A stretch of 12,434 nucleotides of DNA from a virus, in the IMG/VR virus record IMGVR_UViG_3300045988_167490, positions 1-12,434 of that record. One strand, given 5' to 3'. Position numbers and translations under genes: made by a program. Shown piece after piece: positions 1 through 12,434 of this stretch. Under the pieces are notes generated by a model. It did not search any database. It had not been told where the DNA came from and saw nothing but the letters and a program-made list of their open reading frames with translations. Positions within the stretch are counted from its first letter, which is position 1; each line of letters starts with the position of its first letter.

Positions 1-10
1 CTTCCGATCT
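1..10. other. Illumina adapter remnant (CTTCCGATCT); not biological sequence
   Basis: CTTCCGATCT is the 3' end of the TruSeq adapter (..GCTCTTCCGATCT). Its exact reverse complement sits at the other end of the window. Confidence 0.85.
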
Positions 11-26
11 TGTTAAACTTTTAACA
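11..26. promoter_or_regulatory. Terminal 16-nt palindrome TGTTAAA-CT-TTTAACA; candidate minimal origin for protein-primed replication
   Basis: It is the first 16 nt after the adapter, with 7-bp arms that are exact reverse complements. Through the ITR it is present at both termini. The origin role is inferred from its position only. Confidence 0.4.
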
Positions 27-50
27 AACTTTGCCGCTCCCCGCTTTAGT

Positions 51-90
51 GTGCTAAAGTGCTAAAGTGCTAAAGTGCTAAAGCGTTAAA
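51..90. repeat. 8-bp tandem repeat GTGCTAAA x4 plus a degenerate fifth unit GCGTTAAA, inside the ITR
   Basis: Perfect units at 51-58, 59-66, 67-74 and 75-82; degenerate unit at 83-90. An inverted partial copy CGCTTTAG (42-49) pairs with CTAAAGCG (79-86). Confidence 0.9.
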
Positions 91-118
91 GCATATTAAA
101 AAGGTAGGTTTAATATGC
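91..118. repeat. ITR-internal hairpin/cruciform element (10-bp arms, 8-nt loop)
   Basis: GCATATTAAA (91-100), loop AAGGTAGG (101-108), TTTAATATGC (109-118). A90/T119 would add an 11th pair. Confidence 0.85.
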
Positions 119-126
119 TAATATAT

Positions 127-142
127 TGTTAAATTTTTAACA
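127..142. repeat. Internal near-copy of the terminal palindrome (TGTTAAA-TT-TTTAACA)
   Basis: It differs from the terminal 16-mer at 11-26 only in the central dinucleotide (CT vs TT). It lies 5 nt inside the left ITR boundary. I saw no equivalent at the right end. Confidence 0.8.
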
Positions 143-185
143 TCCATTCCTGATCCATTCCTGATCCATTCCTGATCCATTTCTG
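142..185. repeat. 11-bp tandem repeat ATCCATTCCTG, 3 perfect copies plus 1 with one mismatch; left end only
   Basis: Units at 142-152, 153-163 and 164-174 are perfect. Unit 175-185 is ATCCATTTCTG. A decayed fifth unit lies at 186-196. Confidence 0.9.
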
Positions 186-210
186 TTTCATTTGGTTACA
201 AAATTGTAAC

Positions 211-238
211 TTGATTTTTAAAAATTCTATGATATAAT
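211..238 (+). promoter_or_regulatory. Sigma-A-type early promoter with extended -10
   Basis: TTGATT (211-216), 16-nt spacer, TG (230-231), then TATAAT (233-238). It sits about 55 nt upstream of the first SD-led ORF. An inverted repeat GTTACA-AAAT-TGTAAC (195-210) abuts the -35 and could be an operator. Confidence 0.65.
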
Positions 239-291
239 ATATACAAGAAATAAAGATAAGAGCACTTACAGTGCGGAAAGAGGTGAAAATT

Positions 292-429
292 ATGTTAGAA
301 TTTAAAACGGCTATTGTCAATGAACTAGGTGAAATCATTCAGTGGTGTGAAGATTTAACAGAGAATGAAATTGAAGAAATACTAATAAATCGCCCTGAAT
401 GGCGAACAAAGTGTATAGAATTAAATTAA
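292..429 (+). CDS. Small acidic hypothetical protein (45 aa), first early gene
   Basis: It is not in the supplied track because it is too short. ATG 292 is preceded by GAGGTG (280-285) with a 6-nt spacer. Translation: MLEFKTAIVNELGEIIQWCEDLTENEIEEILINRPEWRTKCIELN, stop TAA 427-429. It lies directly downstream of the promoter, and its stop overlaps the SD of the next gene. Confidence 0.5.
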   Translation: MLEFKTAIVNELGEIIQWCEDLTENEIEEILINRPEWRTKCIELN

Positions 430-443
430 GGAGATTTTTTATT

Positions 444-680
444 ATGACAACAAAACAATTAAAAAAATATGCTGATGAACAACTCAAAAATTACAATGAT
501 GTTTTCTTTTTTGTTAACACAAAAAGAATTATAAAACCATATGCACCGAACGGCGAAAAATATGGTATAGCTTATACAAATACAAATAAGCTACTTCGTT
601 ATGCAAGTAATATTGAAGATGCAAAAGAAATGATTAACTGTTTTGTAAGAGAAGAGCAGGAAATGGAAATGAGTCATTAA
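444..680 (+). CDS. Hypothetical early protein (78 aa)
   Basis: The track ORF is 399-680. ATG 444 has AAGGAG (428-433) 10 nt upstream, whereas ATG 399 has no SD and overlaps the preceding small ORF. I recognise no family. Confidence 0.6.
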   Translation: MTTKQLKKYADEQLKNYNDVFFFVNTKRIIKPYAPNGEKYGIAYTNTNKLLRYASNIEDAKEMINCFVREEQEMEMSH

Positions 681-697
681 AGTATAGTTGTTAATGT

Positions 698-762
698 AAC
701 ACGATTTTGTTTAATGTTTTACGTGAAACACGATTTTGTTTAATGTTTCACGTGAAACATTA
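698..762. repeat. 29-bp tandem repeat (2.2 copies) ending in a 22-bp perfect palindrome TAATGTTTCACGTGAAACATTA
   Basis: Unit AACACGATTTTGTTTAATGTTTYACGTGA occurs at 698-726 and 727-755 with one T/C difference, plus a partial third unit. The perfect palindrome is at 741-762. A third copy lies inverted at 5592-5622. Confidence 0.9.
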
Positions 763-766
763 TTTT
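741..766 (+). terminator. Possible weak intrinsic terminator/attenuator formed by the palindrome
   Basis: A 9-bp AT-rich stem (TAATGTTTC/GAAACATTA) with a 4-nt loop is followed by TTTT (763-766), immediately before the SD GGAGG (767-771) of the next gene. The stem is AT-rich, so its strength is doubtful. Confidence 0.3.
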
Positions 767-780
767 GGAGGTAAAATATT

Positions 781-1236
781 ATGGTAAATTATATTGGAAT
801 TAAAAAAATTAAAGCTGAACCTATGACAAGAGGTGATTATAACAAATTCAGAGGATGGAATATCCCTGAAAACGAAAATCCAAATGACAATGGATATATA
901 GTAAAATATTCTGATGGTTATATCTCATGGAGTCCAAAGTCAGTTTTTGAAGAAGCTTATGATGAAATTGGAAATAAACCTCTGATTGATACAGTTGTAT
1001 TAATGAAAAGCAATGATTATAAAGAAAGATTTATTGCAGAGTATCAGCAATTGGTAATCCGCTATAAGGGATTGAAGAAAATGCTTGATAATTGGGATAA
1101 GGGAGAATTATCTTTCGTTCCGGCTTGTTCACGCAGTACATATAATAAGCAGATTAAATCAATGTTAGACTATATTGCCGTACTCGAAGTAAGGGCGGTT
1201 ATGGAAGGTATCAATTTGCAGGGTGATAAAACTTGA
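781..1236 (+). CDS. Early protein with an N4 gp49 / Sf6 gp66-like N-terminal domain and a crAss001_48-like C-terminal domain
   Basis: SD GGAGG lies 9 nt upstream. The N-terminus KAEPMTRGDYNKFRGWNIPENE..GYIVKYSDGYISWSPKSVFEEAY matches my memory of the N4 Gp49/Sf6 gene 66 family signature. The C-terminus (KERFIAEYQQLVIRYKGLKKML..LSFVPACS..MLDYIAVLEVRA) resembles proteins annotated as crAss001_48-related. The function of both families is unknown. Confidence 0.6.
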   Translation: MVNYIGIKKIKAEPMTRGDYNKFRGWNIPENENPNDNGYIVKYSDGYISWSPKSVFEEAYDEIGNKPLIDTVVLMKSNDYKERFIAEYQQLVIRYKGLKKMLDNWDKGELSFVPACSRSTYNKQIKSMLDYIAVLEVRAVMEGINLQGDKT

Positions 1237-1544
1237 TTACTAATCATTCAGTGAAAATATACTTGAGTGAAGAAAACACTAACAAAATTGAATATATGCA
1301 ATATTTGAAACAAAAGGCAGGTGCTAATAGTTACAAATATCGCAGAACTTTTGACGATATTGTAAATAATGTAATATCTGAAAATCTGACAGAGCGACAG
1401 CGACAAATTATTGAATTACATATGCAAGGATTGAAAAATAAAGATATTGCACAAAAGTTAAACTTATCTCAATGTACAGTTAGTAGACATTTGCAAAAAG
1501 GAAAGGAAAGAATATATGCAGTAGTCAAATATTTTTATCGGTGA
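1233..1544 (+). CDS. Sigma-70 region-4-like HTH protein (103 aa); putative transcription regulator
   Basis: TTG start with GGGTGA (1221-1226) 6 nt upstream, overlapping the previous stop (cTTGA). LTERQRQIIELHMQGLKNKDIAQKLNLSQCTVSRHLQKGKERI is a typical sigma-70 r4 / LuxR-type HTH. I saw no region 2. Confidence 0.7.
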   Translation: MITNHSVKIYLSEENTNKIEYMQYLKQKAGANSYKYRRTFDDIVNNVISENLTERQRQIIELHMQGLKNKDIAQKLNLSQCTVSRHLQKGKERIYAVVKYFYR

Positions 1545-1548
1545 TAAT

Positions 1549-1833
1549 ATGTATAATTGTAAATCAACTTGTAAAGGCAAAACTAATCAATTAAAAATCA
1601 ATTTGTATTTGTCGCTTTTTGAAAATGAATATGCGAAAAAGTATTTGCAATGGGCAAATGAATATTCAACAGACATATTACAAATAGAAAAAACTGTTGA
1701 TAATTTGAACGAAACAAAACGCAACAGATATGTACCAAAATTACACGAATATCGCAGAATTTTAAATGACTTAGTAGAAATACAAGAATTTTTAATAATC
1801 AGAGCATTACAGATTGAAACAAAATCAACTTAA
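1549..1833 (+). CDS. Hypothetical protein (94 aa), predicted helical
   Basis: ATG lies 4 nt after the previous stop, with a weak SD GGTGA. I recognise no family. Confidence 0.55.
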   Translation: MYNCKSTCKGKTNQLKINLYLSLFENEYAKKYLQWANEYSTDILQIEKTVDNLNETKRNRYVPKLHEYRRILNDLVEIQEFLIIRALQIETKST

Positions 1834-1892
1834 TTGCAATTAGTTTATATAAATTTGTTTGGTAGTTGCAAATTAAAATAAAACTACTGCCA

Positions 1893-1911
1893 TAGAATTT
1901 TAAAAATTCTA
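1893..1911. promoter_or_regulatory. 19-bp palindrome TAGAATTTT-A-AAAATTCTA in the long intergenic region
   Basis: It has 9-bp perfect arms around a single central A. It shares the 14-mer TTTTAAAAATTCTA with the spacer of the early promoter (216-229). Confidence 0.5.
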
Positions 1912-2002
1912 ATTGTTCAAACGGATTTGTTAGCTACTCAAATTCAAAAAAGTAGTCCGAACACACAATTCAAAATTTTCAAAAAAGAAAGGAAACAAAA
2001 CT

Positions 2003-2377
2003 ATGGCAAAGACATTTACATCAACACACGAACTCACTGCAGTTGAAAAAATCAAATTGAAGAACATTGACGCTTTTTCAATCGCAGAACTCACAAAGAA
2101 CAGCGAAAGCGGATTTTGTATCGGTAATGTGAAGTCAATCACTATTATTTCAGATACAGAAAACGCAGAGATTTCAGAAATTGCAATTTTTGAAACAGAG
2201 AACGCAGACGGCGAAACGGAGTTTTATCTGGCAAGCTCTAAAGTAGTTATTGATACTATTTCAGACATTATCGCAGATGTAGCAGATGACGAAAGCGTGT
2301 TACAGGAATTTGTTTTCTGTTTTTCTTATGGTGTAAGCAAGAACGGCAACAGATATTTAGCAGTTAAAGTAAAATAA
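2003..2377 (+). CDS. Putative single-stranded DNA-binding protein (phi29 gp5-like), 124 aa
   Basis: It is the same length as phi29 p5. The C-terminal half ADGETEFYLASSKVVIDTISDIIADV...EFVFCFSYGVSKNGNRYLAVKV lines up with my recollection of p5 (ADGSLYSAISKTVAEAASDLIDLV...TFKVKVVQGTSSKGNVFFSLQL). SD AAAGGA lies 9 nt upstream. The alignment is from memory, not computed. Confidence 0.5.
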   Translation: MAKTFTSTHELTAVEKIKLKNIDAFSIAELTKNSESGFCIGNVKSITIISDTENAEISEIAIFETENADGETEFYLASSKVVIDTISDIIADVADDESVLQEFVFCFSYGVSKNGNRYLAVKVK

Positions 2378-2781
2378 TGAGAGAGTTTATTTTACATATG
2401 CAAGTTGTTTTATCTGTAATCGGAGCGTTTTTTGGTTGGTTCTTCGGCGGCGCTGACGGATTTCTATATGCGTTAATTGCATTTGTAATTATCGATTATG
2501 CAACAGGTGTTATAAATGCGATAATTTCTAAAGCGTTGTCAAGTGAAATTGGTTTTAAAGGAATTTGCAAAAAAGTAATGATTTTCATTTTAGTAGGTGT
2601 TGCACATTTAATTGATTTATTTATTTTGCAAGAAGGAACAGCTATTAGAACAGCAGTAATTTTCTTTTATCTTGCAAACGAGGGAATATCTATTCTTGAA
2701 AATTCAGCAAAAATTGGATTACCTATTCCGAAAAAATTAAAACAAATTCTCGCACAAATTAATAAAAGGAGTGGAGAATGA
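2377..2781 (+). CDS. Holin (phage_holin_4_1-type, as in Clostridia/Bacilli phages)
   Basis: The start is coupled to the previous stop (TAATG). There are four hydrophobic segments (VVLSVIGAFFGWFFGG; FLYALIAFVIIDYATGVINAI; VMIFILVGVAHLIDLFI; AVIFFYLANEGISIL). The conserved IDYxTG...KGxxKK...YxxNExxSIxEN..GxPxP pattern is characteristic of this holin family. Confidence 0.85.
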   Translation: MREFILHMQVVLSVIGAFFGWFFGGADGFLYALIAFVIIDYATGVINAIISKALSSEIGFKGICKKVMIFILVGVAHLIDLFILQEGTAIRTAVIFFYLANEGISILENSAKIGLPIPKKLKQILAQINKRSGE

Positions 2782-2782
2782 T

Positions 2783-3697
2783 ATGTCAAAAATTACAAAT
2801 AATGTCAGTCGAGGTTTGACCTCGACTGACGGATTTATTCATTACTTTAATATGCTGTATGATAAAGTATCAAATATGTTTGTATGGGAAAATTTACCAA
2901 AAAGCATTGATGTTAACTACTTAAACAGATGTTTATTTTTAAAAGGTCATTGTGCTTTTTTTAAATTAAACGGTAATTTTTATGTTGCAAACGGAGGCTT
3001 TGCAGGTGAGCCGAACGAGTATTATATGCCGTCGCAGTATATTATAGCTAACCCCGCATTGGGCAGTCATACATTTACAATTAACAAAGATTGTGTTATT
3101 TTGTATAATTCAGCTAAAGACATACAGTATAATGATTTTCCGATTTTGTCAGCTGCACGAGGCGGTTTATATTCTTTGATTTATCGAACAGCTATTTTAT
3201 TATCTGATAATGAATGTTCAATAAATGTAGCTCAAAAAAATTCGAGATTTTTTGCGTTTGCGTCAGCGGATACGGAAAACGCTTATAAAAGCGTATCAGA
3301 AGTATTTAAGAAAATTTACAACGGCGAGGAATTTGCAATAGCAAAGAGCGACATTGCAAGCACTATTTCTATATCACCGCTCGCAACAGGTGGCGGCTCT
3401 GTTAGTCCCACACTGCAAACATTAATTGATATTCAGCAATATTTTTTGGCACAATTTTATCACGCAATCGGCGTAAATTCTAATTTCAATATGAAAAAAG
3501 AAAGGCTCGTTAGTGACGAAATTGCTGTTAATGATACAGCGACAGAAGTTAATATCAATTCAATGTTAGAAATGAGGGAAAACAATGTTCAATCACTTAA
3601 TAATCTTTTCAATCTTAATTGTGACGTTGTTTTGTCTGATTTATGGAAACAAAAAACAATAGAAAAATCAGAAGAAAAAGAAGAAACGGAGGAATAA
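2783..3697 (+). CDS. Head-tail connector / portal (phi29 gp10 upper-collar-like)
   Basis: About 304 aa, against 309 aa for gp10. FIHYFNMLYDKVSNMFVWENLPKSIDVNYL matches gp10 [30 protein letters not shown], and NMKKERLVSDEIAVNDTATE matches [21 protein letters not shown]. ATG 2783 has GGAG 6 nt upstream. The track's GTG 2771 overlaps the holin gene. Confidence 0.9.
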   Translation: MSKITNNVSRGLTSTDGFIHYFNMLYDKVSNMFVWENLPKSIDVNYLNRCLFLKGHCAFFKLNGNFYVANGGFAGEPNEYYMPSQYIIANPALGSHTFTINKDCVILYNSAKDIQYNDFPILSAARGGLYSLIYRTAILLSDNECSINVAQKNSRFFAFASADTENAYKSVSEVFKKIYNGEEFAIAKSDIASTISISPLATGGGSVSPTLQTLIDIQQYFLAQFYHAIGVNSNFNMKKERLVSDEIAVNDTATEVNINSMLEMRENNVQSLNNLFNLNCDVVLSDLWKQKTIEKSEEKEETEE

Positions 3698-3700
3698 GCT

Positions 3701-4423
3701 TTGAGTTTATTATGCGGATATGATGAAGTTGAACTTGAAACACTTGAAGAGTTTGCAGAAAAAAACAAAGCTAATTTTGCTAATTTCTTTGATTATGCTA
3801 CAGATATAGCAACTCCGTTTGGTTTTTCAGTAACGGATTTATCAGATATGTTTTTAGAACTATACAAGTACAGATATATGATTATTGATTGCAATAAAAT
3901 TGCTGATTATAATACATATTACAAAAGAGCAAAAGTTGTATATAATCTTAACAAAAACAAATATATCAAACTTGTTGCTACTGAAACAGTTGAGTATAAT
4001 CCAATTGAGAATTACTCAATGATTGAAACCGGAAACGAAACAAGAACGCCAAACTTGACAAGGTCATCAGAGGGAACAGCAAGTGAAAGCGGCACTAATA
4101 GTGCTAATAACACAACAAGCAATACATCAACAGACAGCAATACAAGTTTTGATAGTACAGCTTTTGTTAATAATTCTAAAAATGAATTAACAGGCAATTC
4201 AAACACAACAGGCGAAAATACAGCTAAAAGCAACTCGACAGTTACTAGCAAGGAAACGGGAACAGAACAAACAACGAACGAACTGACACGAAAGGGCAAT
4301 ATAGGTGTTACAACAACACAACAAATGCTTGAGCAAGAAAGAGCGATTGCGGACTTTTCAACAATTAAAATATTTTTTGAAGATGTCGCAAAATTGCTTT
4401 TCTTTGATATTCTAAATTTATAA
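3701..4423 (+). CDS. Lower collar / tail tube adaptor (phi29 gp11-like)
   Basis: It lies immediately after the connector, as in phi29. TTG start with GGAGG 8 nt upstream. It has EYNPIENY and RKGNIGVTTTQQMLEQE motifs flanking a long Ser/Thr/Asn-rich stretch, which is the pattern I recall for gp11-type lower collar proteins. Confidence 0.6.
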   Translation: MSLLCGYDEVELETLEEFAEKNKANFANFFDYATDIATPFGFSVTDLSDMFLELYKYRYMIIDCNKIADYNTYYKRAKVVYNLNKNKYIKLVATETVEYNPIENYSMIETGNETRTPNLTRSSEGTASESGTNSANNTTSNTSTDSNTSFDSTAFVNNSKNELTGNSNTTGENTAKSNSTVTSKETGTEQTTNELTRKGNIGVTTTQQMLEQERAIADFSTIKIFFEDVAKLLFFDILNL

Positions 4424-4442
4424 CAGAAAGGAAATGAAAAAA

Positions 4443-5588
4443 ATGAAAGTTAAACAAATTGCGGAGATTTTAAACACAATTAATGCCGAAATTATTGGTG
4501 AGAGCGCAGTAGTTGCGGAGGATTTATCTAACATCGTTGATGTCGGTAAGGAAGTTATCGGTGCGGTTGACATTGAGAACTACACAAGGTCATTAATTGA
4601 CCGCGTCGGAAGAGTTGTGTTCTGGGATAGAACATACAATTCAACAGCACCGAATATTCTTAAAGACTCTTGGGAATTCGACTCCATTATGGAAAAAATC
4701 CGTTGTGAACTTCCCGATGTAGAGGAAAACCCGTCGTGGAAATTGACTAAAGGTCAGAGTTACGACCCATTTATTTTTAACCCACCAGCGGTAAAAGCAA
4801 AATTTTTCAACAGCAAGACAACATTTGAAATACCGATATCGTTTGTTGAAGAGCAGATAAAATCAGCTTTTACATCAGCAAGCGAAATGTCAAGATTTTT
4901 TGCTATGATTGAAAATCGTGTTATTATGAAAATGACGCTTTGCACTGATAGTATGATAATGCGCACTATTAACAACTTGATTGCTGAAAAGTTTGCGGCA
5001 AACAACAATGTTATTAATTTGCTCGCTGGCTACAATACAAAAATGGGAACTACATTGACAGCGGCTAAAGCATTAAGCGACAAAGAATTTTTACGCTATG
5101 CTTGCAAACAAATTAATCTTTACAGCGATTATTTGACAAGAGCGTCAATGCTCTTTAATGACAAAGGTTATGTCACATTTACACCAAAAGAAAACCAGAA
5201 AATCGTTATGCTTTCGGAGTTTGACAAGTCAGCAGAAGTTTATCTGTACTCTGATACATTCCATAACAGTTTTGTAAAACTTGACGGCTATACAACTGTT
5301 CCATATTGGCAGGGTTCAGGTACAGATGATAACTTCGATTTTGACGAAATCAGTAAAATTTCTGTAAAAACAGCAAGCGGAACTGACATTGAAAAAACAG
5401 GTATTATCGGTGTAATCTTTGACGAAAACGCTTGCGCTGTTTGTAACGAAAATCCTCGCACAACAAGTCAGTACAATGCTAAAGGCGAGTTTATCAACTA
5501 TTTTCATAAATGGGATTGCTCATATATCAATGATACAAACGAAAATTGCATTGTTTTTGTTGTCGAAGATACAACAGGCAAACCGTAA
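4443..5588 (+). CDS. Major capsid protein (phi29 gp8-like HK97 fold, without a C-terminal Ig-like domain)
   Basis: YTRSLIDRVGRVVF matches gp8 FITSLVDRIGLVVI, and GIIGVIFDENACAVCNENPRTTSQYNAKGEFINYFHKW matches [39 protein letters not shown]. It is followed by a hairpin terminator. The start is ambiguous: ATG 4443 is 10 nt from AAAGGA, while the track's ATG 4434 is only 1 nt from it. Confidence 0.82.
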   Translation: MKVKQIAEILNTINAEIIGESAVVAEDLSNIVDVGKEVIGAVDIENYTRSLIDRVGRVVFWDRTYNSTAPNILKDSWEFDSIMEKIRCELPDVEENPSWKLTKGQSYDPFIFNPPAVKAKFFNSKTTFEIPISFVEEQIKSAFTSASEMSRFFAMIENRVIMKMTLCTDSMIMRTINNLIAEKFAANNNVINLLAGYNTKMGTTLTAAKALSDKEFLRYACKQINLYSDYLTRASMLFNDKGYVTFTPKENQKIVMLSEFDKSAEVYLYSDTFHNSFVKLDGYTTVPYWQGSGTDDNFDFDEISKISVKTASGTDIEKTGIIGVIFDENACAVCNENPRTTSQYNAKGEFINYFHKWDCSYINDTNENCIVFVVEDTTGKP

Positions 5589-5591
5589 TCA

Positions 5592-5622
5592 AATGTTTCA
5601 CGTGAAACATTAAACAAAATCG
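5592..5622. repeat. Third, inverted copy of the palindrome-containing element
   Basis: AATGTTTCACGTGAAACATTAAACAAAATCG is the exact 31-nt reverse complement of 731-761. It starts 4 nt after the capsid stop codon and overlaps the first 2 nt of the terminator stem. Confidence 0.92.
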
Positions 5623-5646
5623 CCCTACAAAATTTCTTGTAGGGCG
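5621..5646 (+). terminator. GC-rich hairpin terminator downstream of the major capsid gene
   Basis: A 10-bp stem CGCCCTACAA/TTGTAGGGCG with loop AATTTC. The + strand tail is only ATAATTG. On the - strand the hairpin is followed by ATTTTGTTT, so it looks bidirectional or even better oriented for antisense. Confidence 0.6.
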
Positions 5647-5666
5647 ATAATTGAAAAGGTGATAAA

Positions 5667-6185
5667 ATGAAGGTAACATTATGCACTTTAACAGAAAACA
5701 GAAAAAACGCAGTTATAAAAACATTTACAGAAATTAAAACTATATCAGCGCAACAAATAGAGCAAATGACCGTTTCTGATTTGGAATGCACAATAGTTTT
5801 AAATTTCAATAATAGCATTTCAATGTTAACTAATAGTAATTTAGTAAATTATGCGCATATCAATTTAGAAAGAACTATTTACTATTTTATTGATAAAATC
5901 GAATTTTTGACGGGTAGTAGAATTGTACTACATCTTGTCGAGGATGTTTTAGCAACATATTCAGACGAAATTTTACAACTGAATTGTTTGATTACTCGAC
6001 AAGAAAACATCAAAAGCAATTTTATAGTTGATAATTTTTTACCGTTGAAAAATGAAAAAACAATAAAGGTTATTGATTTTGATAATTCAGAGTTTAATTT
6101 AAGTACAGCGACAAAAGACAGCTACAATTTTTTATTGACCGTTGCGGGAGGTGGCACAAATGGAACTCAACAGACAAATATATAA
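5667..6185 (+). CDS. Tail knob protein, N-terminal module (phi29 gp9 N-terminus-like), 172 aa
   Basis: SD AAGGTGA. IYYFIDKIEFLTGSRIVLHLVEDVLATYSDEILQLNCLITRQE aligns with gp9 [44 protein letters not shown] (from memory). It ends 26 nt inside the next ORF. Confidence 0.6.
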   Translation: MKVTLCTLTENRKNAVIKTFTEIKTISAQQIEQMTVSDLECTIVLNFNNSISMLTNSNLVNYAHINLERTIYYFIDKIEFLTGSRIVLHLVEDVLATYSDEILQLNCLITRQENIKSNFIVDNFLPLKNEKTIKVIDFDNSEFNLSTATKDSYNFLLTVAGGGTNGTQQTNI

Positions 6186-8301
6186 AACAGAAAATGATGT
6201 AAATTATAACGGTATAATTTTTAATACTAAAGGATTGAGCGAATATACAAACAGTGATGATTATAAATTCAATCAAGACTATAACAAAATGCCAGACATC
6301 TCATTTGCGTACGGAATGAGCAAAGGAAAATACTCGCCGCATTGCAATTTTGCAGTTGTTGCAACTAATCTGAATGTAAACCCAGATGTGAGTAAAATTC
6401 AGATTACAAAATATAATCAACCGTTCGCTTACTGTTTTTTGAATAGAGCGAAAGAGTTAATGCACAGTCCGTTTTTGCCTGTCGGGCTTTTTGGTAAGTA
6501 TCCAATCCGAACAACGGTAAGTACCGAAAACACTAATTTTACCTCGTGGGGCAAGGGTACACAAGGAACAGCACAACAAGCGGCGTTTTTTAGAAGTTTT
6601 GTTCCCGCTGTCAAATTTAATTATCAACAATTTGCTATTTGTCCCACTTTTGAGTGTAGTAGCACGATTGACTTGGCAATTCAAAAAAATACTGTCGGAG
6701 AGGTAAAAAGAAAACTTAATGAATTATCAGACGATTATAAATATATCAGTACTGTTAATATGTTAGGTACATATTATAACGGTGAGTCTGTTAGTGGTGC
6801 TAATCACGATGTTGCTGTTTCTGGTATCAATAACATAAAAATCATAACATATAAATCAAGCGGCATAACGGGTGTTGATATTGAACCCGATAATCAAGCA
6901 AAACCGGATATAAGTTTTGAACGATTAACAGTGCTCGGAAATTCTACGCCAATACGCTCAATAAACGAGTTAGCTGGCAAAACGATTAACACTGCTATTA
7001 GATGTCCAGAACCGTTCGAGATTTTAGCGAACAGTGACAAAGAATGGTTCGGAACTGTAGCGGCATATACAGAAAAAGAAAAATTTAAAAGATTAATAAG
7101 TTGTTACGGGTTAATTTGGTGTGACGATAAAGATTATATCGTTAGAGATTTAAACGAAAATACTATTAATGAACATTATTATATACCAATTCGCAACAGC
7201 GAAGGTTTTTATGTTGGCGATTACCTGCAAGGTGAAGAGGCAATCGACTATTTGAAAAAACACCCAGAACTCAACACCACAGACCAATGGCAAAAAAATA
7301 ACGGAGTTGTTATCAATCCCGATACACACGATTATACAAACGATATTGATTTAAATAAGCCCAATCTCTCAACAATCGGTGTTTTCAATCGTAGTTATGC
7401 TATGAATTTTAAGGATATTTTGTCATTATCTAATTATATGTGGAACAGTGACGATAATATATTTAATCAAATTGTCGAAAGTTTAAAGCTATTCGGTGAA
7501 AATCCTATAAACGCACTAATCAGCTTGCGTTTATATCCGTTCGACCTTGATAAAAAATTAGGTTCAACCGCAGTGGAAAAAATCAAACTCGGTAGAATTG
7601 TTACAGATGTTGACGGAAAAATATTACCAAATGACATAGACTGCGTTTTTGATTTGGGTTCAACCGATTTTCCGAATTACCACGATAATTTTTTAGATTA
7701 TTCACCGTATACCGATTGCGAGTTAATTATACCATATTGCGGTAATTTGACAATTCAACCGCAAGAATTTATCGGAAAAACATTATCAATTAAGTTAGTT
7801 GTTGACTTCAATTTAGGTGCTTGCACCGCTGTAATTTTTGCGGACGGTATTCCAAAGCTGTACAAAAGTGGCAACATTGGCGCAGAAGTTGCTATGAGTA
7901 GCAATATATCCGCCGATTATGGTAAAAATTGGTTAAATGCGAGCGTGGGGGCTGTATCTAATATATCGTCAATTGCAAGCGGTAATCTTGTAAGCGTTCT
8001 AGGCAGTGCAACCGATATAGCAAAATCGTACACTCAACCTACAATATTTCAAAATGTAGCTGGCAACTCCTCAACGGTTAACAATTGGTTACCGCAAAAG
8101 GCATATTTGATTATCAGAACATCAGAGAGCAACGAGCCCGAAAATTACGGTGCTACTGTCGGCTATGCGTGTAGTTTTAAAGAAAAATTGCAAAATTTGA
8201 GCGGTTATACAGTAGTCAGTAATCCGCAAATTTCGTTTAAATGCTCAAGTGCTGAAAATGACGAAATAAAAAGAATTTTGCAAAACGGTTTTTATATTTG
8301 A
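6160..8301 (+). CDS. Tail knob protein, main/C-terminal module (phi29 gp9-like) with a large extra central region
   Basis: ATG 6160 has GGGAGGTG (6146-6153) 6 nt upstream; the track's TTG 6142 is unlikely. The C-terminal third resembles gp9: YSPYTDCELIIPYCGNLTIQ vs MMYPYCVTEITDFKGNHMNL; a Gly/Ser/Ala-rich loop (SVGAVSNISSIASGNLVSVLGSA) like the gp9 membrane-active loop; SAENDEIKRILQNGFYI vs NNNDLQEIRTIFDNGITLW. Confidence 0.72.
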   Translation: MELNRQIYKTENDVNYNGIIFNTKGLSEYTNSDDYKFNQDYNKMPDISFAYGMSKGKYSPHCNFAVVATNLNVNPDVSKIQITKYNQPFAYCFLNRAKELMHSPFLPVGLFGKYPIRTTVSTENTNFTSWGKGTQGTAQQAAFFRSFVPAVKFNYQQFAICPTFECSSTIDLAIQKNTVGEVKRKLNELSDDYKYISTVNMLGTYYNGESVSGANHDVAVSGINNIKIITYKSSGITGVDIEPDNQAKPDISFERLTVLGNSTPIRSINELAGKTINTAIRCPEPFEILANSDKEWFGTVAAYTEKEKFKRLISCYGLIWCDDKDYIVRDLNENTINEHYYIPIRNSEGFYVGDYLQGEEAIDYLKKHPELNTTDQWQKNNGVVINPDTHDYTNDIDLNKPNLSTIGVFNRSYAMNFKDILSLSNYMWNSDDNIFNQIVESLKLFGENPINALISLRLYPFDLDKKLGSTAVEKIKLGRIVTDVDGKILPNDIDCVFDLGSTDFPNYHDNFLDYSPYTDCELIIPYCGNLTIQPQEFIGKTLSIKLVVDFNLGACTAVIFADGIPKLYKSGNIGAEVAMSSNISADYGKNWLNASVGAVSNISSIASGNLVSVLGSATDIAKSYTQPTIFQNVAGNSSTVNNWLPQKAYLIIRTSESNEPENYGATVGYACSFKEKLQNLSGYTVVSNPQISFKCSSAENDEIKRILQNGFYI

Positions 8302-8315
8302 GCAGGTGATTTTAA

Positions 8316-8990
8316 ATGAGTTATGCAAAATTAGATTATTCACTTGTTAAAGATTTAACAGTTGCAGACTTGCAACAGCTTATAAAGAAAGAAACATCTA
8401 TTGCTAATAAGCGACTGCGGCGACTGTATAATGCAAATTTGCAAAATCAAAGTGAGCAATATAATCAAGAATTTTCAGCGGCTCTTCATAACACTAACGG
8501 TTTTGGAACAAAAAGCGGTTATTTTTCATCAGCTACAAAAGAAAAGAGCAAACAACAATTAGTAACTCAATTTTTGCAAGTTAGAAATTTTTTAGCAAAT
8601 GATATTACAGTTACATCAGTAAAAAAAGAGCAGAAAGCAAGACAAACAAGTTTTGAACGAATTGAAACAATGAAAGCACAACGAAGTAAAAGAACACGAC
8701 CTAAAAAAATTTCAATCAAAAAAACTTTTGAATTTGTTGATAATCTGTTCACTGACTTAAAAAATATGGGATTTAATACAAATGTTCTCGGCAGTTTGTA
8801 CTCTGATATTTTAGCTATCACAAAATCAAGAATTGAGAGCGGCGAAAACTATTCAAGCATACTTGAAAGTATAGCAAATAGTATGAACTCATACGATTAT
8901 GATACAACAGCAATTCTAAACGATTTTTCAGAAAACGGTCGTTTACTTGTCAAATATGGCGATACTACATTCAAAAGAGAAGAGGAATAA
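8316..8990 (+). CDS. Candidate terminal protein (primer for DNA replication), 224 aa
   Basis: It lies immediately upstream of, and is translationally close-coupled to, the protein-primed polymerase (stop 8990, pol ATG 8993), as with phi29 gp3-gp2. The size is right for a terminal protein. It has a strongly basic patch, KAQRSKRTRPKKISIKK. I saw no direct sequence signature; the call rests on synteny. Confidence 0.5.
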   Translation: MSYAKLDYSLVKDLTVADLQQLIKKETSIANKRLRRLYNANLQNQSEQYNQEFSAALHNTNGFGTKSGYFSSATKEKSKQQLVTQFLQVRNFLANDITVTSVKKEQKARQTSFERIETMKAQRSKRTRPKKISIKKTFEFVDNLFTDLKNMGFNTNVLGSLYSDILAITKSRIESGENYSSILESIANSMNSYDYDTTAILNDFSENGRLLVKYGDTTFKREEE

Positions 8991-8992
8991 CA

Positions 8993-11161
8993 ATGTTGCA
9001 TTTTTCTGAATTTCCAAAGCAGAATTATAAATTTGATATTGTTACTAAGAAAACAAAAAAGCAAGAAATTGAATATTATAACACTGCATTTTCTTTTGAT
9101 ATTGAAACAACTAGCTTTTATTATGAGAACGGTTGTTCGATAATTCCAAAGACGAATGAAACAGAAAAATACAACAAAGCGGCAGTTATGTATATATGGC
9201 AATTTGGAGTAGGTCAAGATGTTTATTACGGTCGTACTTGGCAGGACTTTAAAGATTTTCTAATGATGTTAAAAGAATATTTCAATCTAAACAACAATAG
9301 AAAAATTATAATTTATGTACATAATTTAGCGTATGAATTTCAATTTTTAAGAAAAGAGTTCAACATCACAAATATGTTTGCTCGACAAGAGCGAAAACCG
9401 ATACACTTCACATTAAACGAATTTTTCGAGTTTAAATGTAGTTTTATGTTGAGTTGCTCAAGTCTTGAAACAATTGCAAAAAATTTAACAACAGTAAAAA
9501 TCAATAAAAAAATCGGTGACTTGAATTATAGATTATATCGTAATTCAAGTACACCGCTGACCTCAACCGAACTCGGCTACTGCGAATATGATATAAAAAT
9601 ACTGCAATACTATATCAGCGAAGAGATTGCATTAAATGAAAATAACATCTTAAACATACCACTGACAAAAACGGGTTACGTTAGAAGATTTTGCCGCAAC
9701 GCTTTGAAAGAAAACAATTATAAAAAATATCGTATGTTTATCAAAGATAACTCACCCGAAACAGAAGAGTTTATTTTACTTAACAAAATTTTTCAGGGCG
9801 GCTACACGCACGCAAATTGCAACTATGTAGGTTTAACTTTAAATGATGTTAGTAGCATTGACTTTACAAGTAGTTATCCGTCAGTAATGATTAGACATAA
9901 GTTTCCTATGCGAAAATTTAAGAAAATTGACATTATAGATTATGATACTTTTACAGAATTTATAAACAAATTTCCTTGCATTTTCGAAATTATGTTTACT
10001 AATCTAAAAGCGAAAACATCACATCACATCATACAAAGAGCAAAGTGCAGTGTTTGCACAAATGGTGTTTTCGATAACGGACGAATAATGCAAGCTGATA
10101 GTATTATAACATATTGCAATGATGTTGATTTTAAATGTATTCAAGATTTTTATACATATGACAGTATCACAATTAAAAATTTTTGGTACAGCAAATATGA
10201 GTATTTACCGAAAACAATTATTGAATGTATATTAAAGTTATACAACGATAAAACAATGTTAAAAGGTGTAGCAGGATATGAAAAAGAATATTTAATAAAA
10301 AAGGGTATGTTAAACAGTTCGTACGGAATGTGTGTTACCAATCCATGCAATGACGAAATTTCATATACAGAAAATTGGCAGAAAGAACGCAAAAGCATTG
10401 ACGAATGCTTAAAAGATAATAAATATAACTATAATCAATTTCTTTTGTATTCGTGGGGTGTTTGGGTGACATCTTGGGCAAGATATGAACTTTTTGACGG
10501 TATCAAAAATATTAATGAAGATGTTATTTATTCAGATACTGACAGCATTAAATTTTTAAATTTTGATAAACACAAAGAATATATAAACGCTTACAACAAG
10601 CGTGTTGCTAAAGAATTAAAACAGTGTTGTGATTTTTACAATATTGATTTTGAATTAACGCAACCCGAAAAAAGCGGAAAAAAATATCCGCTTGGCGTAT
10701 GGGATATTGAAAAAAGCTACACAAGGTTTAAAACGCTCGGAGCGAAAAGATATTGTTATCAGTACGCTGACGGCAGTGTAAACTTGACCGTATCGGGCAT
10801 TAATAAAAAATATGCAGTGCCTTATATGATGTCAGTATGTAACAATGATGTTAATAAGTTTTTTGATATGTTCAATTCAAATCTGAAAATACCAAAAGGC
10901 AAAACAGGAAAATTAACTCATACATATATTGATAATGAAATTAATGTTACTTTAGTTGACTATAATGGAAATTCAGAGATTGAAAACATTAAAAGTTGTA
11001 TTCACTTAGAAGATACAGAGTTTACATTGCAGATGTCAACTGAATTTTTGTCATTTTTGTGTGACTTTGTTTTTGACGAACTCGGAAACAATTTTTCATT
11101 AGGAATAAAGAGAGACGAACTTGCAATCACTTTTTTCGATAATTTTAGAAACGGAGTATAA
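8993..11161 (+). CDS. Protein-primed family-B DNA polymerase
   Basis: ExoI FSFDIETT; ExoII HNLAYEF; SLETIAKNL; ExoIII YCEYDIKIL; motif A IDFTSSYPS (Dx2SLYP); motif B KKGMLNSSYG (Kx3NSxYG); GVWVTSWARYELF (cf. phi29 GVFITAWARYTTI); motif C IYSDTDSIKF; KxY GAKRYCY. SD AGAGGA lies 6 nt upstream. Confidence 0.96.
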   Translation: MLHFSEFPKQNYKFDIVTKKTKKQEIEYYNTAFSFDIETTSFYYENGCSIIPKTNETEKYNKAAVMYIWQFGVGQDVYYGRTWQDFKDFLMMLKEYFNLNNNRKIIIYVHNLAYEFQFLRKEFNITNMFARQERKPIHFTLNEFFEFKCSFMLSCSSLETIAKNLTTVKINKKIGDLNYRLYRNSSTPLTSTELGYCEYDIKILQYYISEEIALNENNILNIPLTKTGYVRRFCRNALKENNYKKYRMFIKDNSPETEEFILLNKIFQGGYTHANCNYVGLTLNDVSSIDFTSSYPSVMIRHKFPMRKFKKIDIIDYDTFTEFINKFPCIFEIMFTNLKAKTSHHIIQRAKCSVCTNGVFDNGRIMQADSIITYCNDVDFKCIQDFYTYDSITIKNFWYSKYEYLPKTIIECILKLYNDKTMLKGVAGYEKEYLIKKGMLNSSYGMCVTNPCNDEISYTENWQKERKSIDECLKDNKYNYNQFLLYSWGVWVTSWARYELFDGIKNINEDVIYSDTDSIKFLNFDKHKEYINAYNKRVAKELKQCCDFYNIDFELTQPEKSGKKYPLGVWDIEKSYTRFKTLGAKRYCYQYADGSVNLTVSGINKKYAVPYMMSVCNNDVNKFFDMFNSNLKIPKGKTGKLTHTYIDNEINVTLVDYNGNSEIENIKSCIHLEDTEFTLQMSTEFLSFLCDFVFDELGNNFSLGIKRDELAITFFDNFRNGV

Positions 11162-11164
11162 ACA

Positions 11165-12250
11165 ATGAAGTATTACAGTTTAAAAAATATTGATAAAAAA
11201 CAAGCCGAATATAACGTCATAATCGGTAAAAGAAGTAACGGAAAAACATACTCTGTATGTGATAAATCACTTAGAGAACATTACAAATCAGGAAAACGGC
11301 TTGCATATATCAGACGATACGCAGAAGATATTACACCGAAATTTATAAAAAAGCTGTTTGCACCACACGATTTGGAAAGTATCACGGCAGGCAAGTGGAA
11401 TTACATACGATATTATAACAGAGGATTTTATTTTGCTAAAATAGAAGATAATAAAATTATTGATTGCGAAGTAGAACCGTTTTGTCAAACGTTTGCGTTG
11501 AATGTTTGGGAAAGCGCAAAAGGAGCTGATAACGGATATTTTGATTATATTTTATTTGACGAATTTATCACAAGAGGACACTATTTAGCAGATGAATTTA
11601 TCATATTTTGTAATGTGCTTTCTTCCGTGTTGCGTGACCGTGACGGCACAAAAATATATATGCTTGCTAATACAATCAACAAATATTGCATATATTTTTC
11701 CGAAATGGGTATTAATGATGTTGAGAATATGCAACAAGGCGAAATTAAAGTTTATCCGTTCGGATATGGTAATGAGAAGTTGCAGATAGCAGTTGAATAC
11801 TGTTCAGATACAGATAATACTAAAAAAGTAAGTAAGTATTTTGCGTTCACAAATCCACGCACAAAAATGATTACGGAGGGAAAATGGGAGATTAAAAACT
11901 ATCCACATATTCCAAAAAATATTACTTCTGATAATATTATATATAAAGCGTTTGTTTTTTTCAATCATAAATTTATGTGTGTAAATATTTGTGAAAAAAA
12001 CTCCGAAGTGTTTTTGACTGTACATATGCAAACAAAAGAATTTAATTCAGATAATATCATTTTTGATTTTACACCAAACACCAAAACAAATTATTTTATA
12101 AATCTGAATGTTTGCGATAACAAAATCGGATTGCTGATTAGAAATTTAATAAACAAGCAAAAAATTTTTTATGCCAGCAATGAAGTCGGCGAATTATTCC
12201 GCAATTGGATTTTAGAGCAATCAAAAACGCAACAAATATTTTTGAGTTGA
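11165..12250 (+). CDS. DNA encapsidation (packaging) ATPase, phi29 gp16-like
   Basis: Walker A NVIIGKRSNGKTYS (gp16 NFVIGARGIGKSYA); LAYIRRY (FIYVRRY); Walker B YILFDEFI (TIVFDEFI); YMLANTINKYCIYF (CLSNAVSVVNPYF). SD GGAG lies 8 nt upstream. It is the last gene before the right ITR. Confidence 0.9.
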   Translation: MKYYSLKNIDKKQAEYNVIIGKRSNGKTYSVCDKSLREHYKSGKRLAYIRRYAEDITPKFIKKLFAPHDLESITAGKWNYIRYYNRGFYFAKIEDNKIIDCEVEPFCQTFALNVWESAKGADNGYFDYILFDEFITRGHYLADEFIIFCNVLSSVLRDRDGTKIYMLANTINKYCIYFSEMGINDVENMQQGEIKVYPFGYGNEKLQIAVEYCSDTDNTKKVSKYFAFTNPRTKMITEGKWEIKNYPHIPKNITSDNIIYKAFVFFNHKFMCVNICEKNSEVFLTVHMQTKEFNSDNIIFDFTPNTKTNYFINLNVCDNKIGLLIRNLINKQKIFYASNEVGELFRNWILEQSKTQQIFLS

Positions 12251-12290
12251 TACCGTTATAACACTTTAATACACTAAAATATAGTACATA

Positions 12291-12332
12291 GGTAGGTTTT
12301 ATGCTTTAGCACTTTAGCATATTAAACCTACC
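12291..12332. repeat. Right-end-specific imperfect hairpin straddling the ITR boundary
   Basis: GGTAGGTTT (12291-12299) pairs with AAACCTACC (12324-12332), and TATGCT (12300-12305) pairs with AGCATA (12316-12321). The loop TTAGCACTTT contains an extra copy of the ITR 8-mer. It reuses the CCTACC that forms the loop of the ITR hairpin, so the two folds exclude each other. Confidence 0.75.
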
Positions 12333-12424
12333 TTTTTAATATGCTTTAACGCTTTAGCACTTTAGCACTTTAGCACTTTAGCACACTAAAGCGGGGAGCG
12401 GCAAAGTTTGTTAAAAGTTTAACA
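12314..12424. repeat. Right inverted terminal repeat (ITR)
   Basis: Exact reverse complement of 11-121. It mirrors the 8-bp tandem array (12345-12384) and the hairpin (12317-12344). Confidence 0.93.
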
Positions 12425-12434
12425 AGATCGGAAG
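12425..12434. other. Illumina adapter remnant (AGATCGGAAG); not biological sequence
   Basis: AGATCGGAAG is the start of the standard adapter read-through sequence AGATCGGAAGAGC. Confidence 0.85.

Follow-up and report, generated by a model that had tools for sequence, protein, structure and literature searches.

Phi29-like podophages of 10-13.5 kb are by now a recognised group, to which the DNA analysed here, the 12,434 nt IMG/VR virus record IMGVR_UViG_3300045988_167490 (in its whole length called the window below), adds one more species. Clusters of 11-14 kb were described in a 2024 review (PMC11476376), and the cultured Ruminococcus albus phages phiRa02 (12,985 bp) and phiRa04 (12,977 bp) are phi29-like podophages (PMC5723332). 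A tblastn search of GenBank with the family B DNA polymerase (PolB) and the major capsid protein (MCP) returned further small isolates: Pectobacterium DU_PP_III (11.5 kb), Salmonella astrithr, Astrid and assan (11.6-11.7 kb), Acinetobacter Phanie (11.9 kb), Enterobacter Entb_47 (11.6 kb), a Shigella phage (11.2 kb) and Amedibacillus AD70P2 and AD70P3 (12.2-12.3 kb), together with a series of 12-14 kb human-faecal contigs. Vibrio K58 g2 stands at 10.4 kb, its record being cut inside polB. Relatives of the same architecture and 12.0-13.5 kb in size are common in human-gut assemblies. A preliminary description of the window, made from the sequence, had presented it as exceptionally small and had named Mycoplasma phage P1 as the only comparable tailed phage. 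Its annotation is largely right; the novelty of size is not supported, since isolates of 10.4-12.3 kb are in GenBank and phiRa02/04 have 13 kb, and Astrithrvirus, DU_PP_III, Phanie, K58 g2, Entb_47 and AD70P2/P3 are all comparable.

The window is very probably the near-complete linear double-stranded DNA genome, of about 12.41 kb and short of some 6 terminal nucleotides, of a human-gut podophage that is virulent, phi29-like and protein-primed, with Ruminococcus intestinalis, or else a bacterium very closely related to it (Oscillospiraceae, Clostridia), as its host. The genome itself is ordinary. What is new is the firm host, a cultured R. intestinalis strain, gained for a widespread uncultured clade of human-gut phages. 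The about 15 co-oriented genes announced in the preliminary description correspond to 15 open reading frames (ORFs), all on the + strand and with Shine-Dalgarno-like sequences upstream, which make the window 93% coding; its GC content is ~31% throughout, and a tRNA scan of it found none. The ends and the genes of the structural and replication blocks are the following:

1-10, no strand: presumed Illumina adapter remnant CTTCCGATCT, mirroring 12425-12434; not phage sequence
11-121, no strand: left inverted terminal repeat (ITR), 111 nt, with 8-mer repeats GTGCTAAA at ~51-90; complementarity, boundary kept in the relatives L009 and L008
2003-2377, + strand: 124-aa acidic protein, possible p5-like single-stranded DNA-binding protein (SSB); weak hhalign match to phi29 gp5
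2377-2781, + strand: holin (Phage_holin_4_1); PF05105, E 1.5e-44
2783-3697, + strand: upper collar or connector (gp10-like), 304 aa from ATG 2783, a start picked by comparison with relatives; PF05352, E 1.6e-23, and phrog_2038, E 1.4e-34
3701-4423, + strand: lower collar or tail tube (gp11-like) candidate, 240 aa with an S/T/N-rich centre; adjoins the connector in all relatives
4434-5588, + strand: MCP (phi29 gp8-like); PF25622, E 3.1e-52, 40-47% identical to Astrithrvirus-like MCPs
5667-6185, + strand: N-terminal part of the tail knob, a separate gene, 172 aa; phrog_2248, E 7.5e-5
6160-8301, + strand: C-terminal part of the tail knob, 713 aa from ATG 6160, with a variable N-terminal extension of ~400 aa; homology
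8316-8990, + strand: terminal protein (TP) candidate, 224 aa; directly upstream of polB
8993-11161, + strand: protein-primed PolB, 722 aa; phrog_1907, E 2.5e-64
11165-12250, + strand: gp16-like DNA packaging ATPase, 361 aa; PF05894, E 1.9e-12, and phrog_2150, E 1.8e-23
12314-12424, no strand: right ITR, 111 nt; complementarity to the left arm
12425-12434, no strand: presumed Illumina adapter remnant AGATCGGAAG; read from the sequence

The best protein identities to any cultured phage are those to the Astrithrvirus group (PolB 41-44%, MCP 40-47%, ATPase 38-40%). These phages are likewise linear and have 10.4-11.9 kb; the record of DU_PP_III annotates terminal repeats of 219 nt. With the window they share a TP candidate, PolB, gp16 ATPase, connector, short collar, MCP and a knob in two genes. 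They differ in the position of the TP-PolB-ATPase block, at the left end in the group and at the right end in the window, and in having 2-4 small genes on the opposite strand whereas all genes of the window are co-oriented. In addition, a CHAP or amidase endolysin follows their knob while the window has a Clostridia-type holin and no recognisable lysin, and their hosts are Proteobacteria as against a Gram-positive host of the class Clostridia. With no nucleotide similarity, proteins 26-47% identical and a different order of modules, the window lies far outside the genus Astrithrvirus by the criterion used here, ~70% nucleotide similarity over the genome (practice of the International Committee on Taxonomy of Viruses). 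By their published description phiRa02/04 resemble the window as cultured lytic Ruminococcus podophages with 15-16 ORFs, a connector, a putative terminal protein and a family B polymerase ahead of the encapsidation ATPase, but come from a rumen host species and have a higher GC content of ~35% (PMC5723332). AD70P2 and AD70P3, labelled Guelinviridae in their records, agree in size (12.2-12.3 kb), low GC content (27%), a Bacillota gut host, 15 genes and the same core; their PolB and MCP are 34% and 28% identical, respectively, the knob is one fused protein and the gene order is another. Phi29 (Salasmaviridae) shares ITR ends (5′-AAAGTA in relatives of the window), protein-primed PolB, gp10, gp8, gp11, gp9 and gp16, but has 19.3 kb against 12.4 kb, an ITR of 6 nt against 111 nt and a collar of 293 against 240 aa. 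Divergent early and late transcription, p4, p6, head fibres, gp12 appendages, gp13 lysin, gp15 endolysin and prohead RNA (pRNA) of the RF00044 type are undetectable in the window. The similarity to phi29 is visible at profile level only, which agrees with the earlier statement that the core proteins are diverged. Phi29-like protein-primed podophages in the broad sense take in Salasmaviridae, Guelinviridae, Rountreeviridae, Madridviridae, Astrithrvirus and others.

The two arms of the window, 1-121 and 12314-12434, form a terminal inverted repeat with 100% complementarity. The preliminary description had noted ITRs at both extremities and the repeat is indeed perfect, but its outermost 10 nt at each end (CTTCCGATCT and AGATCGGAAG) are what we take to be the 3′ end of the Illumina TruSeq adapter, so that the biological ITR comes to 111 nt and the genome to ~12,414 bp. 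The relative L114, an independent assembly, likewise starts with TCCGATCT. Adapter at both ends is the expected outcome when many library fragments begin at a physical DNA end. A second relative, L009, extends 7 nt (AAAGTAT) beyond the homologous end position of the window, and since the last nucleotide of this stretch coincides with the final T of the adapter, the window probably lacks the terminal hexamer AAAGTA, about 6 nt. The sequence 5′-AAAGTA is the terminal repeat of phi29 itself; it also begins L009, whose ITR of 142 nt has AAAGTAT at its outer end, and L106 of a sister clade, whose ITR of 396 nt starts with AAAGTACCCC. On its inner side the ITR stops at homologous positions in the window, L009 and L008, so that this boundary is not a k-mer artefact; for the ITR as a whole such an artefact is ruled out by this conservation across assemblies and by a host spacer lying inside the repeat, sp72 of the R. 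intestinalis array described below, which equals window 21-55 and 12380-12414 at 35 of 35 positions. The 55-nt terminal repeats of three other contigs (L110, L112 and L113) may be k-mer artefacts. The claim of a complete phi29-like protein-primed genome thus holds in the sense that the ITR-bounded window is complete or within a few nucleotides of it. By analogy, a TP would be covalently bound to the 5′ ends.

PolB scores 25.5 bits against PF03175, just below the cut-off of 25.8. Its only match among PDB sequences is the phi29 DNA polymerase (E 0.001), with an alignment covering motif B (KKGMLNSSYG) and motif C (YSDTDS), which are spaced by 69 residues in the window and 63 in phi29; DIETT, YxxxD and DFTSSYPS are equally legible in the translation. 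At the level of sequence this confirms a polymerase of the protein-primed type, in which the TPR1 and TPR2 insertions are predicted only. No terminal-protein gene was listed in the preliminary description. A candidate is the gene at 8316-8990, by its position and by homology to Astrithrvirus-like genes: iterative hidden Markov model (HMM) searches link its product to the gene just upstream of polB in astrithr, Phanie, DU_PP_III, K58 g2, AD70P2 and MT836155, and the family alignment contains a conserved ANKRLxRL motif.

Among the remaining core genes named in the preliminary description the connector, capsid, PolB and gp16 ATPase stand; PF05352, PF25622 and PF05894 are matched above their curated Pfam cut-offs, as are the holin family PF05105, the GerE/sigma-70 region-4 helix-turn-helix (HTH) and the crAss001_48-related family described below. 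A gp5-like SSB is not established. The 124-aa protein aligns with phi29 gp5, also 124 aa, over 86 colinear columns with 30% identity, a weak hhalign match (probability 10.5%, E 0.003), and it has no Pfam match and one marginal PHROG match (phrog_34214, E 0.011, unknown function). An exhaustive phmmer search found four relatives among 1.84 billion representatives, too few for a deeper profile, and by tblastn against GenBank phages AD70P2 and AD70P3 have the sole homologs outside the window clade. A p5-like SSB is a possible reading of this gene. The collar is in an intermediate position. A local iterative HMM connects the protein encoded at 3701-4423 with phi29 gp11 (E 8e-17, in a small database), while direct searches gave weak matches (phrog_3225 'adaptor Ad4', E 0.16; PDB profile against phi29 gp11, 6QZ9, E 0.71); its assignment as lower collar is moderately supported, and weaker than that of the knob.

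The knob proved to be encoded by two genes, an arrangement described for Astrithrvirus-like phages (PMC11476376). The family profile of the 172-aa protein matches the N-terminal regions of solved knobs (C1 gp12, 4EO2, 8e-4; Andhra, 8EGS_Y, 1e-3; phi29 gp9, 5FB4, 0.096), and the protein is homologous to Phanie gp9, astrithr gp09 and to the N-terminal portion of the single-chain knobs in AD70P2 and MT836155. The C-terminal ~320 residues of the 713-aa protein are homologous to the C-terminal part of the same two single-chain knobs, and to proteins of astrithr (gp10), Phanie (gp10) and DU_PP_III. Since the two families are the N- and C-terminal parts of one polypeptide in AD70P2 and MT836155, the knob of the window is split in two genes, and the reading that the 172-aa and 713-aa proteins together make up the equivalent of the phi29 gp9 tail knob is supported by these homologies. 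The 713-aa protein has no Pfam match, and PDB sequence and profile searches with its full length, the profile of its C-terminal domain and its N-terminal half were empty; an AlphaFold2 model from an alignment of nine sequences was unusable, with a predicted local distance difference test score (pLDDT) of 37.8. It is probably the receptor-binding module. The knob genes (5667-8301 in the window, 5706-8301 in L009) encode proteins only 45% and 40% identical in L009, L018 and L019, as against ~93% protein identity over the remaining genome, and the final ~60 residues of the module are conserved again between the window and L009. This pattern suggests that the two genes are exchanged as a module, as is typical of receptor-binding modules, and points to host-range variation driven by recombination.

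Megablast of the window against GenBank phages gave no nucleotide match, and its exact MCP is absent from the contig index. IMG/VR holds two contigs from a human-gut sample with proteins 85-95% identical to those of the window, and searches with the holin and the TP candidate found dozens of proteins 72-97% identical on ENA, Logan, NCBI and JGI contigs. The window fits a clade with IMG/VR UViG_3300045988_163868 and _169488, ENA k141_103222 and NCBI JAIFIH010002105, which have the same gene order, ITR sequence and 8-mer repeats and nucleotide identities of 78-91%. The order of the 15 genes is identical in the full-length ENA and NCBI contigs L014, L015 and L019, partial Logan and ENA contigs agree over their length, and none of the phage-only contigs of the clade exceeds ~12.46 kb. 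Nucleotide identity reaches 90-91% over 95% of the window with L015 and L008 and 78% over 90% with L014; the closest values being under the 95% line used for species, the window is a distinct species-level member. The sister clade of metagenome contigs (12.3-13.2 kb) has MCPs 60-62% identical and shares the order of its structural and replication genes with the window; in a further, more remote group, where contigs reach 13.5 kb, the MCPs are 48-52% identical. Three contigs of 13.0-13.5 kb (L116-L118, MCP ~52%) are unconfirmed candidates for the neighbourhood of phiRa02/04. The phylogenies of PolB, ATPase and MCP that the preliminary description had proposed were made as neighbour-joining (NJ) trees; they agree in grouping the window clade and its sister clade from the gut beside the Astrithrvirus-like phages, with phi29 as outgroup and AD70P2, MT836155 and MT836125 outside this grouping.

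The host was suspected to be a member of the Firmicutes, possibly of the Clostridia, and is now narrowed to R. intestinalis by its clustered regularly interspaced short palindromic repeats (CRISPR). The lead came from an ENA contig of 36,412 bp (ERZ1745026 NODE_573, here L018, identical with L105 and OKRW01000573.1) in which a near-identical phage is joined to cas genes (join region 12220-12470). Past the join in the right ITR follow 30 nt that are the reverse complement of CTATAAATCTATCCATATTGGATTTTAAAT, then 185 nt and then cas2 and cas1, the encoded Cas1 being 100% identical to that of R. intestinalis NSJ-71. In this strain (L021, NZ_JACOPS010000001.1, 11461-20945) the same 185-nt leader and 30-nt repeat start a type I-B array of at least 145 repeats. 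The 144 spacers read from it include 59 that match the phage clade and 28 that match the window with at most 4 mismatches, two of the latter perfectly and one of these two inside the ITR. With the same limit, 15 of the 24 spacers read from UMGS1995, which has the same Cas1, match the clade and 12 the window. Shuffled spacers gave no match. A protospacer-adjacent motif (PAM) 5′-CCN is present at 30 of 41 protospacers, several of which cluster in polB and the ATPase gene. No spacer matching the window clade was found in the arrays with the same repeat of eight related Ruminococcus/Eubacterium species, and none from any of the ten arrays matches the sister clade. The GC content of the host locus is 30.7%. 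The case for R. intestinalis (Oscillospiraceae) as the host, drawn from these matches, is strong, and the record is unusually one-sided, with 41% of the 144 spacers read aimed at one 12-kb phage.

By analogy with phi29 the life cycle may be pictured as follows. The terminal protein encoded at 8316-8990 would prime replication by PolB (8993-11161) from both 111-nt ITR ends; the 5′-AAAGTA ends of the relatives, the same as in phi29, are compatible with sliding-back initiation. A sigma-70-like promoter at 211-238 would drive the early genes (292-1833), with a GerE/sigma region-4 regulator among them, and a late block would supply the holin, the connector, the short lower collar, the capsid protein and the two-gene tail knob. 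DNA carrying TP would then be packaged by the gp16-like ATPase into what is predicted to be a podoviral virion, and the cycle is presumed to be lytic. Several points weigh against this picture. The TP candidate has no detectable similarity to phi29 gp3 (p3), with an hhalign probability of 0.2%; its AlphaFold2 model is all-helical and of low confidence (pLDDT 55), and a Foldseek search of PDB with that model returned only noise (E above 2). The analogy is incomplete, as pRNA of the RF00044 type, an endolysin or tail lysin and a scaffold gene are not recognisable. The NJ trees carry no bootstrap support, and uniform coverage and pile-up of reads at the ends rest on the adapter remnants and not on mapped reads. 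Finally, CRISPR targeting is a record of exposure to, and injection into, R. intestinalis and not of productive infection.

The lack of recognisable genes for an endolysin, tail lysin, scaffold, appendage or integrase refers to Pfam and PHROG scans of the ORFs and, for the C-terminal knob protein, a PDB profile search. It bears on the possibility that the phage depends on a helper, with a capsid and short knob of its own but infectivity only by means of the tail of an unrelated co-infecting phage. Such a life is reported for Acinetobacter phage Phanie, among the nearest cultured relatives, which is non-infectious unless bound to a myophage tail (PMC11476376). The window resembles Phanie in having the knob in two genes with a large additional N-terminal region, and in the same scans it has no recognisable gp12-like tail fibre or appendage gene and no lysin. 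We nevertheless regard helper dependence as unlikely: the N-terminal knob gene and the ~400-aa N-terminal extension of the other knob protein are swapped between genomes ~93% identical elsewhere, the usual signature of a receptor-binding module of the phage's own, and phiRa02/04, of the same size and type, form plaques on R. albus with no helper reported (PMC5723332).

That the window is a fragment of a larger replicon, be it a prophage, a phage-plasmid or a longer phage, with ends produced by assembly, has very little probability. The preliminary description had named sequence running on past either end as a sign of this, and such sequence was found once, in the 36,412-bp contig where the near-identical phage genome is fused to bacterial cas genes. 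There, however, the phage part stops in the right ITR exactly at a CRISPR repeat, followed by the R. intestinalis array leader and cas2-cas1, and the join runs through a spacer identical to the phage ITR, which in the phage is preceded by CCC, the PAM. Because leader and repeat are the same in NSJ-71, this contig is chimeric, the assembler having passed from the leader-proximal spacer into phage sequence. Phage/CRISPR chimeric contigs of this kind could be mistaken for prophages. All other phage-only contigs end at or before ~12.46 kb with ITRs, both ends of the window are capped by adapter remnants, and the Pfam and PHROG scans revealed no integrase or partition gene among its ORFs. A Gram-negative host, as in the closest cultured relatives from Salmonella, Pectobacterium, Acinetobacter and Vibrio, is hardly to be expected either. 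It would suit the similarity of PolB, MCP and ATPase, which is highest to Astrithrvirus-like phages, and the proposal that the split knob and short collar are adaptations to Gram-negative hosts and their envelopes (PMC11476376). Against it stand the 59 of 144 R. intestinalis spacers that target the clade with a consistent PAM, the matching GC content of the window and the host locus, a holin family typical of Clostridia and the sources, all of them human-gut metagenomes. The named cellular homologs of the holin, 63-68% identical, are from Lachnospiraceae, Epulopiscium, Anaerovirgula and Hypnocyclicus, mostly Clostridia with one member of the Fusobacteriota. With R. intestinalis as host, a Gram-positive-infecting lineage that is sister to the Gram-negative Astrithrvirus-like phages has both the split knob and the short collar, so that, contrary to the suggestion made for them, these are unlikely to be adaptations to the Gram-negative envelope.

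The left part of the genome and the intergenic regions contain the following additional features:

144-186, + strand: tandem array of the 11-mer CCATTCCTGAT, ~3.5 copies, just inside the left ITR
211-238, + strand: sigma-70-like early promoter candidate, TTGATT-16-TATAAT with extended TG; consensus match only
292-429, + strand: early ORF 1, 45 aa from ATG 292 (the frame opens at GTG 271); 85% identical in L009, no family match
444-680, + strand: early ORF 2, 78 aa from ATG 444 after GGAG; 74-75% identical in L008 and L009, no family match
695-761, no strand: two tandem copies of a 30-nt element with the palindrome TGTTTCACGTGAAACA (palindrome copies at 715-759), upstream of the accessory gene
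781-1236, + strand: accessory crAss001_48-related protein, 151 aa; PF21825, E 4.8e-17, and several PHROGs without function
1233-1544, + strand: LuxR/GerE or sigma-70 region-4 HTH, 103 aa, candidate transcription regulator; PF00196, E 9e-12, and PF08281, E 1e-10
1549-1833, + strand: conserved early ORF, 94 aa, confined to the window clade
1834-2002, + strand: structured non-coding RNA candidate, conserved and covarying, between the early genes and the 124-aa gene
5594-5648, no strand: palindrome TGTTTCACGTGAAACA (5594-5609) and a G+C-rich hairpin of 13 bp (5619-5648), in the interval from the MCP gene to the knob genes

The 169-nt spacer 1834-2002 is more conserved than the genes that flank it. 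In its fold a closing helix and two hairpins meet in a three-way junction, after which comes one more hairpin; both large loops are invariant and each contains CAAAUU, within which AAUU is self-complementary. Over nine distinct sequences 98.2% of the cells agree with pairing as against 37-52% in slid controls, nine pairs are changed on both sides as against 0-2 in these controls, and none of 500 shuffles reached the observed values. Because it contains conserved G-U pairs, the fold is specific to the + strand. Homologous regions are present in L008 (1197-1380), L009 (1815-1996), L014 (1321-1496), L015 (1660-1840) and L122-L125, with one hairpin duplicated in L124 and L125. A covariance model of the RNA found it in the close clade and not in the sister clade, the Astrithrvirus-like phages, AD70P2 or phi29, and an exact-word scan of IMG/VR for the loop sequence gave no new relatives. 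The RNA matches no Rfam family; the pRNA family RF00044, which is not known outside the Bacillus relatives of phi29, is not matched anywhere in the window, also when the filters were relaxed for 1834-2002, whereas phi29 as positive control scored 145 bits. That the RNA is nonetheless a functional analogue of phi29 pRNA, working with the gp16-type motor, is a doubtful idea. If it were true, packaging that depends on a pRNA would occur well beyond the phi29 group of Bacillus, and as a variant that Rfam misses. On a less radical reading, at least as likely, the RNA may regulate the switch from early to late expression. The sister clade has a different conserved non-coding region of ~170 nt at the same map position (L106 2365-2535, homologous in L107-L115), with an interrupted long-range helix of 27 bp in which three pairs show compensatory changes, preceded by a promoter-like site TTGACA...GATAAT.

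The promoter candidate at 211-238 is the sole good site on the + strand upstream of the first gene. Between it and the ITR lies the array of the 11-mer CCATTCCTGAT, the period of which is about one helical turn; its copy number varies from ~10 in L009 and L018 over ~3.5 in the window to ~1 in L008. The HTH gene is kept in all members of the clade, while the crAss001_48-related gene gave no tblastn match in L008, L009 or any other relative; as far as its sequence tells, this presence in the window only speaks for an exchange of genes with unrelated gut phages. Pfam and PHROG scans of the seven ORFs left unassigned, run up to an E of 10, returned marginal matches only. A holin combined with no recognisable lysin makes the clade of some interest; the sister clade encodes a CHAP-domain protein (region 1696-2364 of L106). 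Between the collar and capsid genes the window has no scaffold-like ORF, whereas an ORF of 95 aa precedes the capsid gene in the sister clade.

The window has three copies of TGTTTCACGTGAAACA, a perfect palindrome of 16 bp, where 0.01 would be expected. It is kept between the capsid and knob genes in relatives (L009 5621-5656, L015 5428-5439 and L124 4146-4157) and may serve the GerE-type HTH protein as operator. The adjacent hairpin at 5619-5648 has its T-run on the - strand and looks like an intrinsic terminator of antisense transcription, in a genome that has no genes on that strand; read on the + strand, it may lend stability to the capsid mRNA at its 3′ end. A terminator scan of both strands found another strong hairpin of 13 bp with seven G-C pairs at 2803-2831, within the 5′ end of the connector gene just past the holin stop codon.

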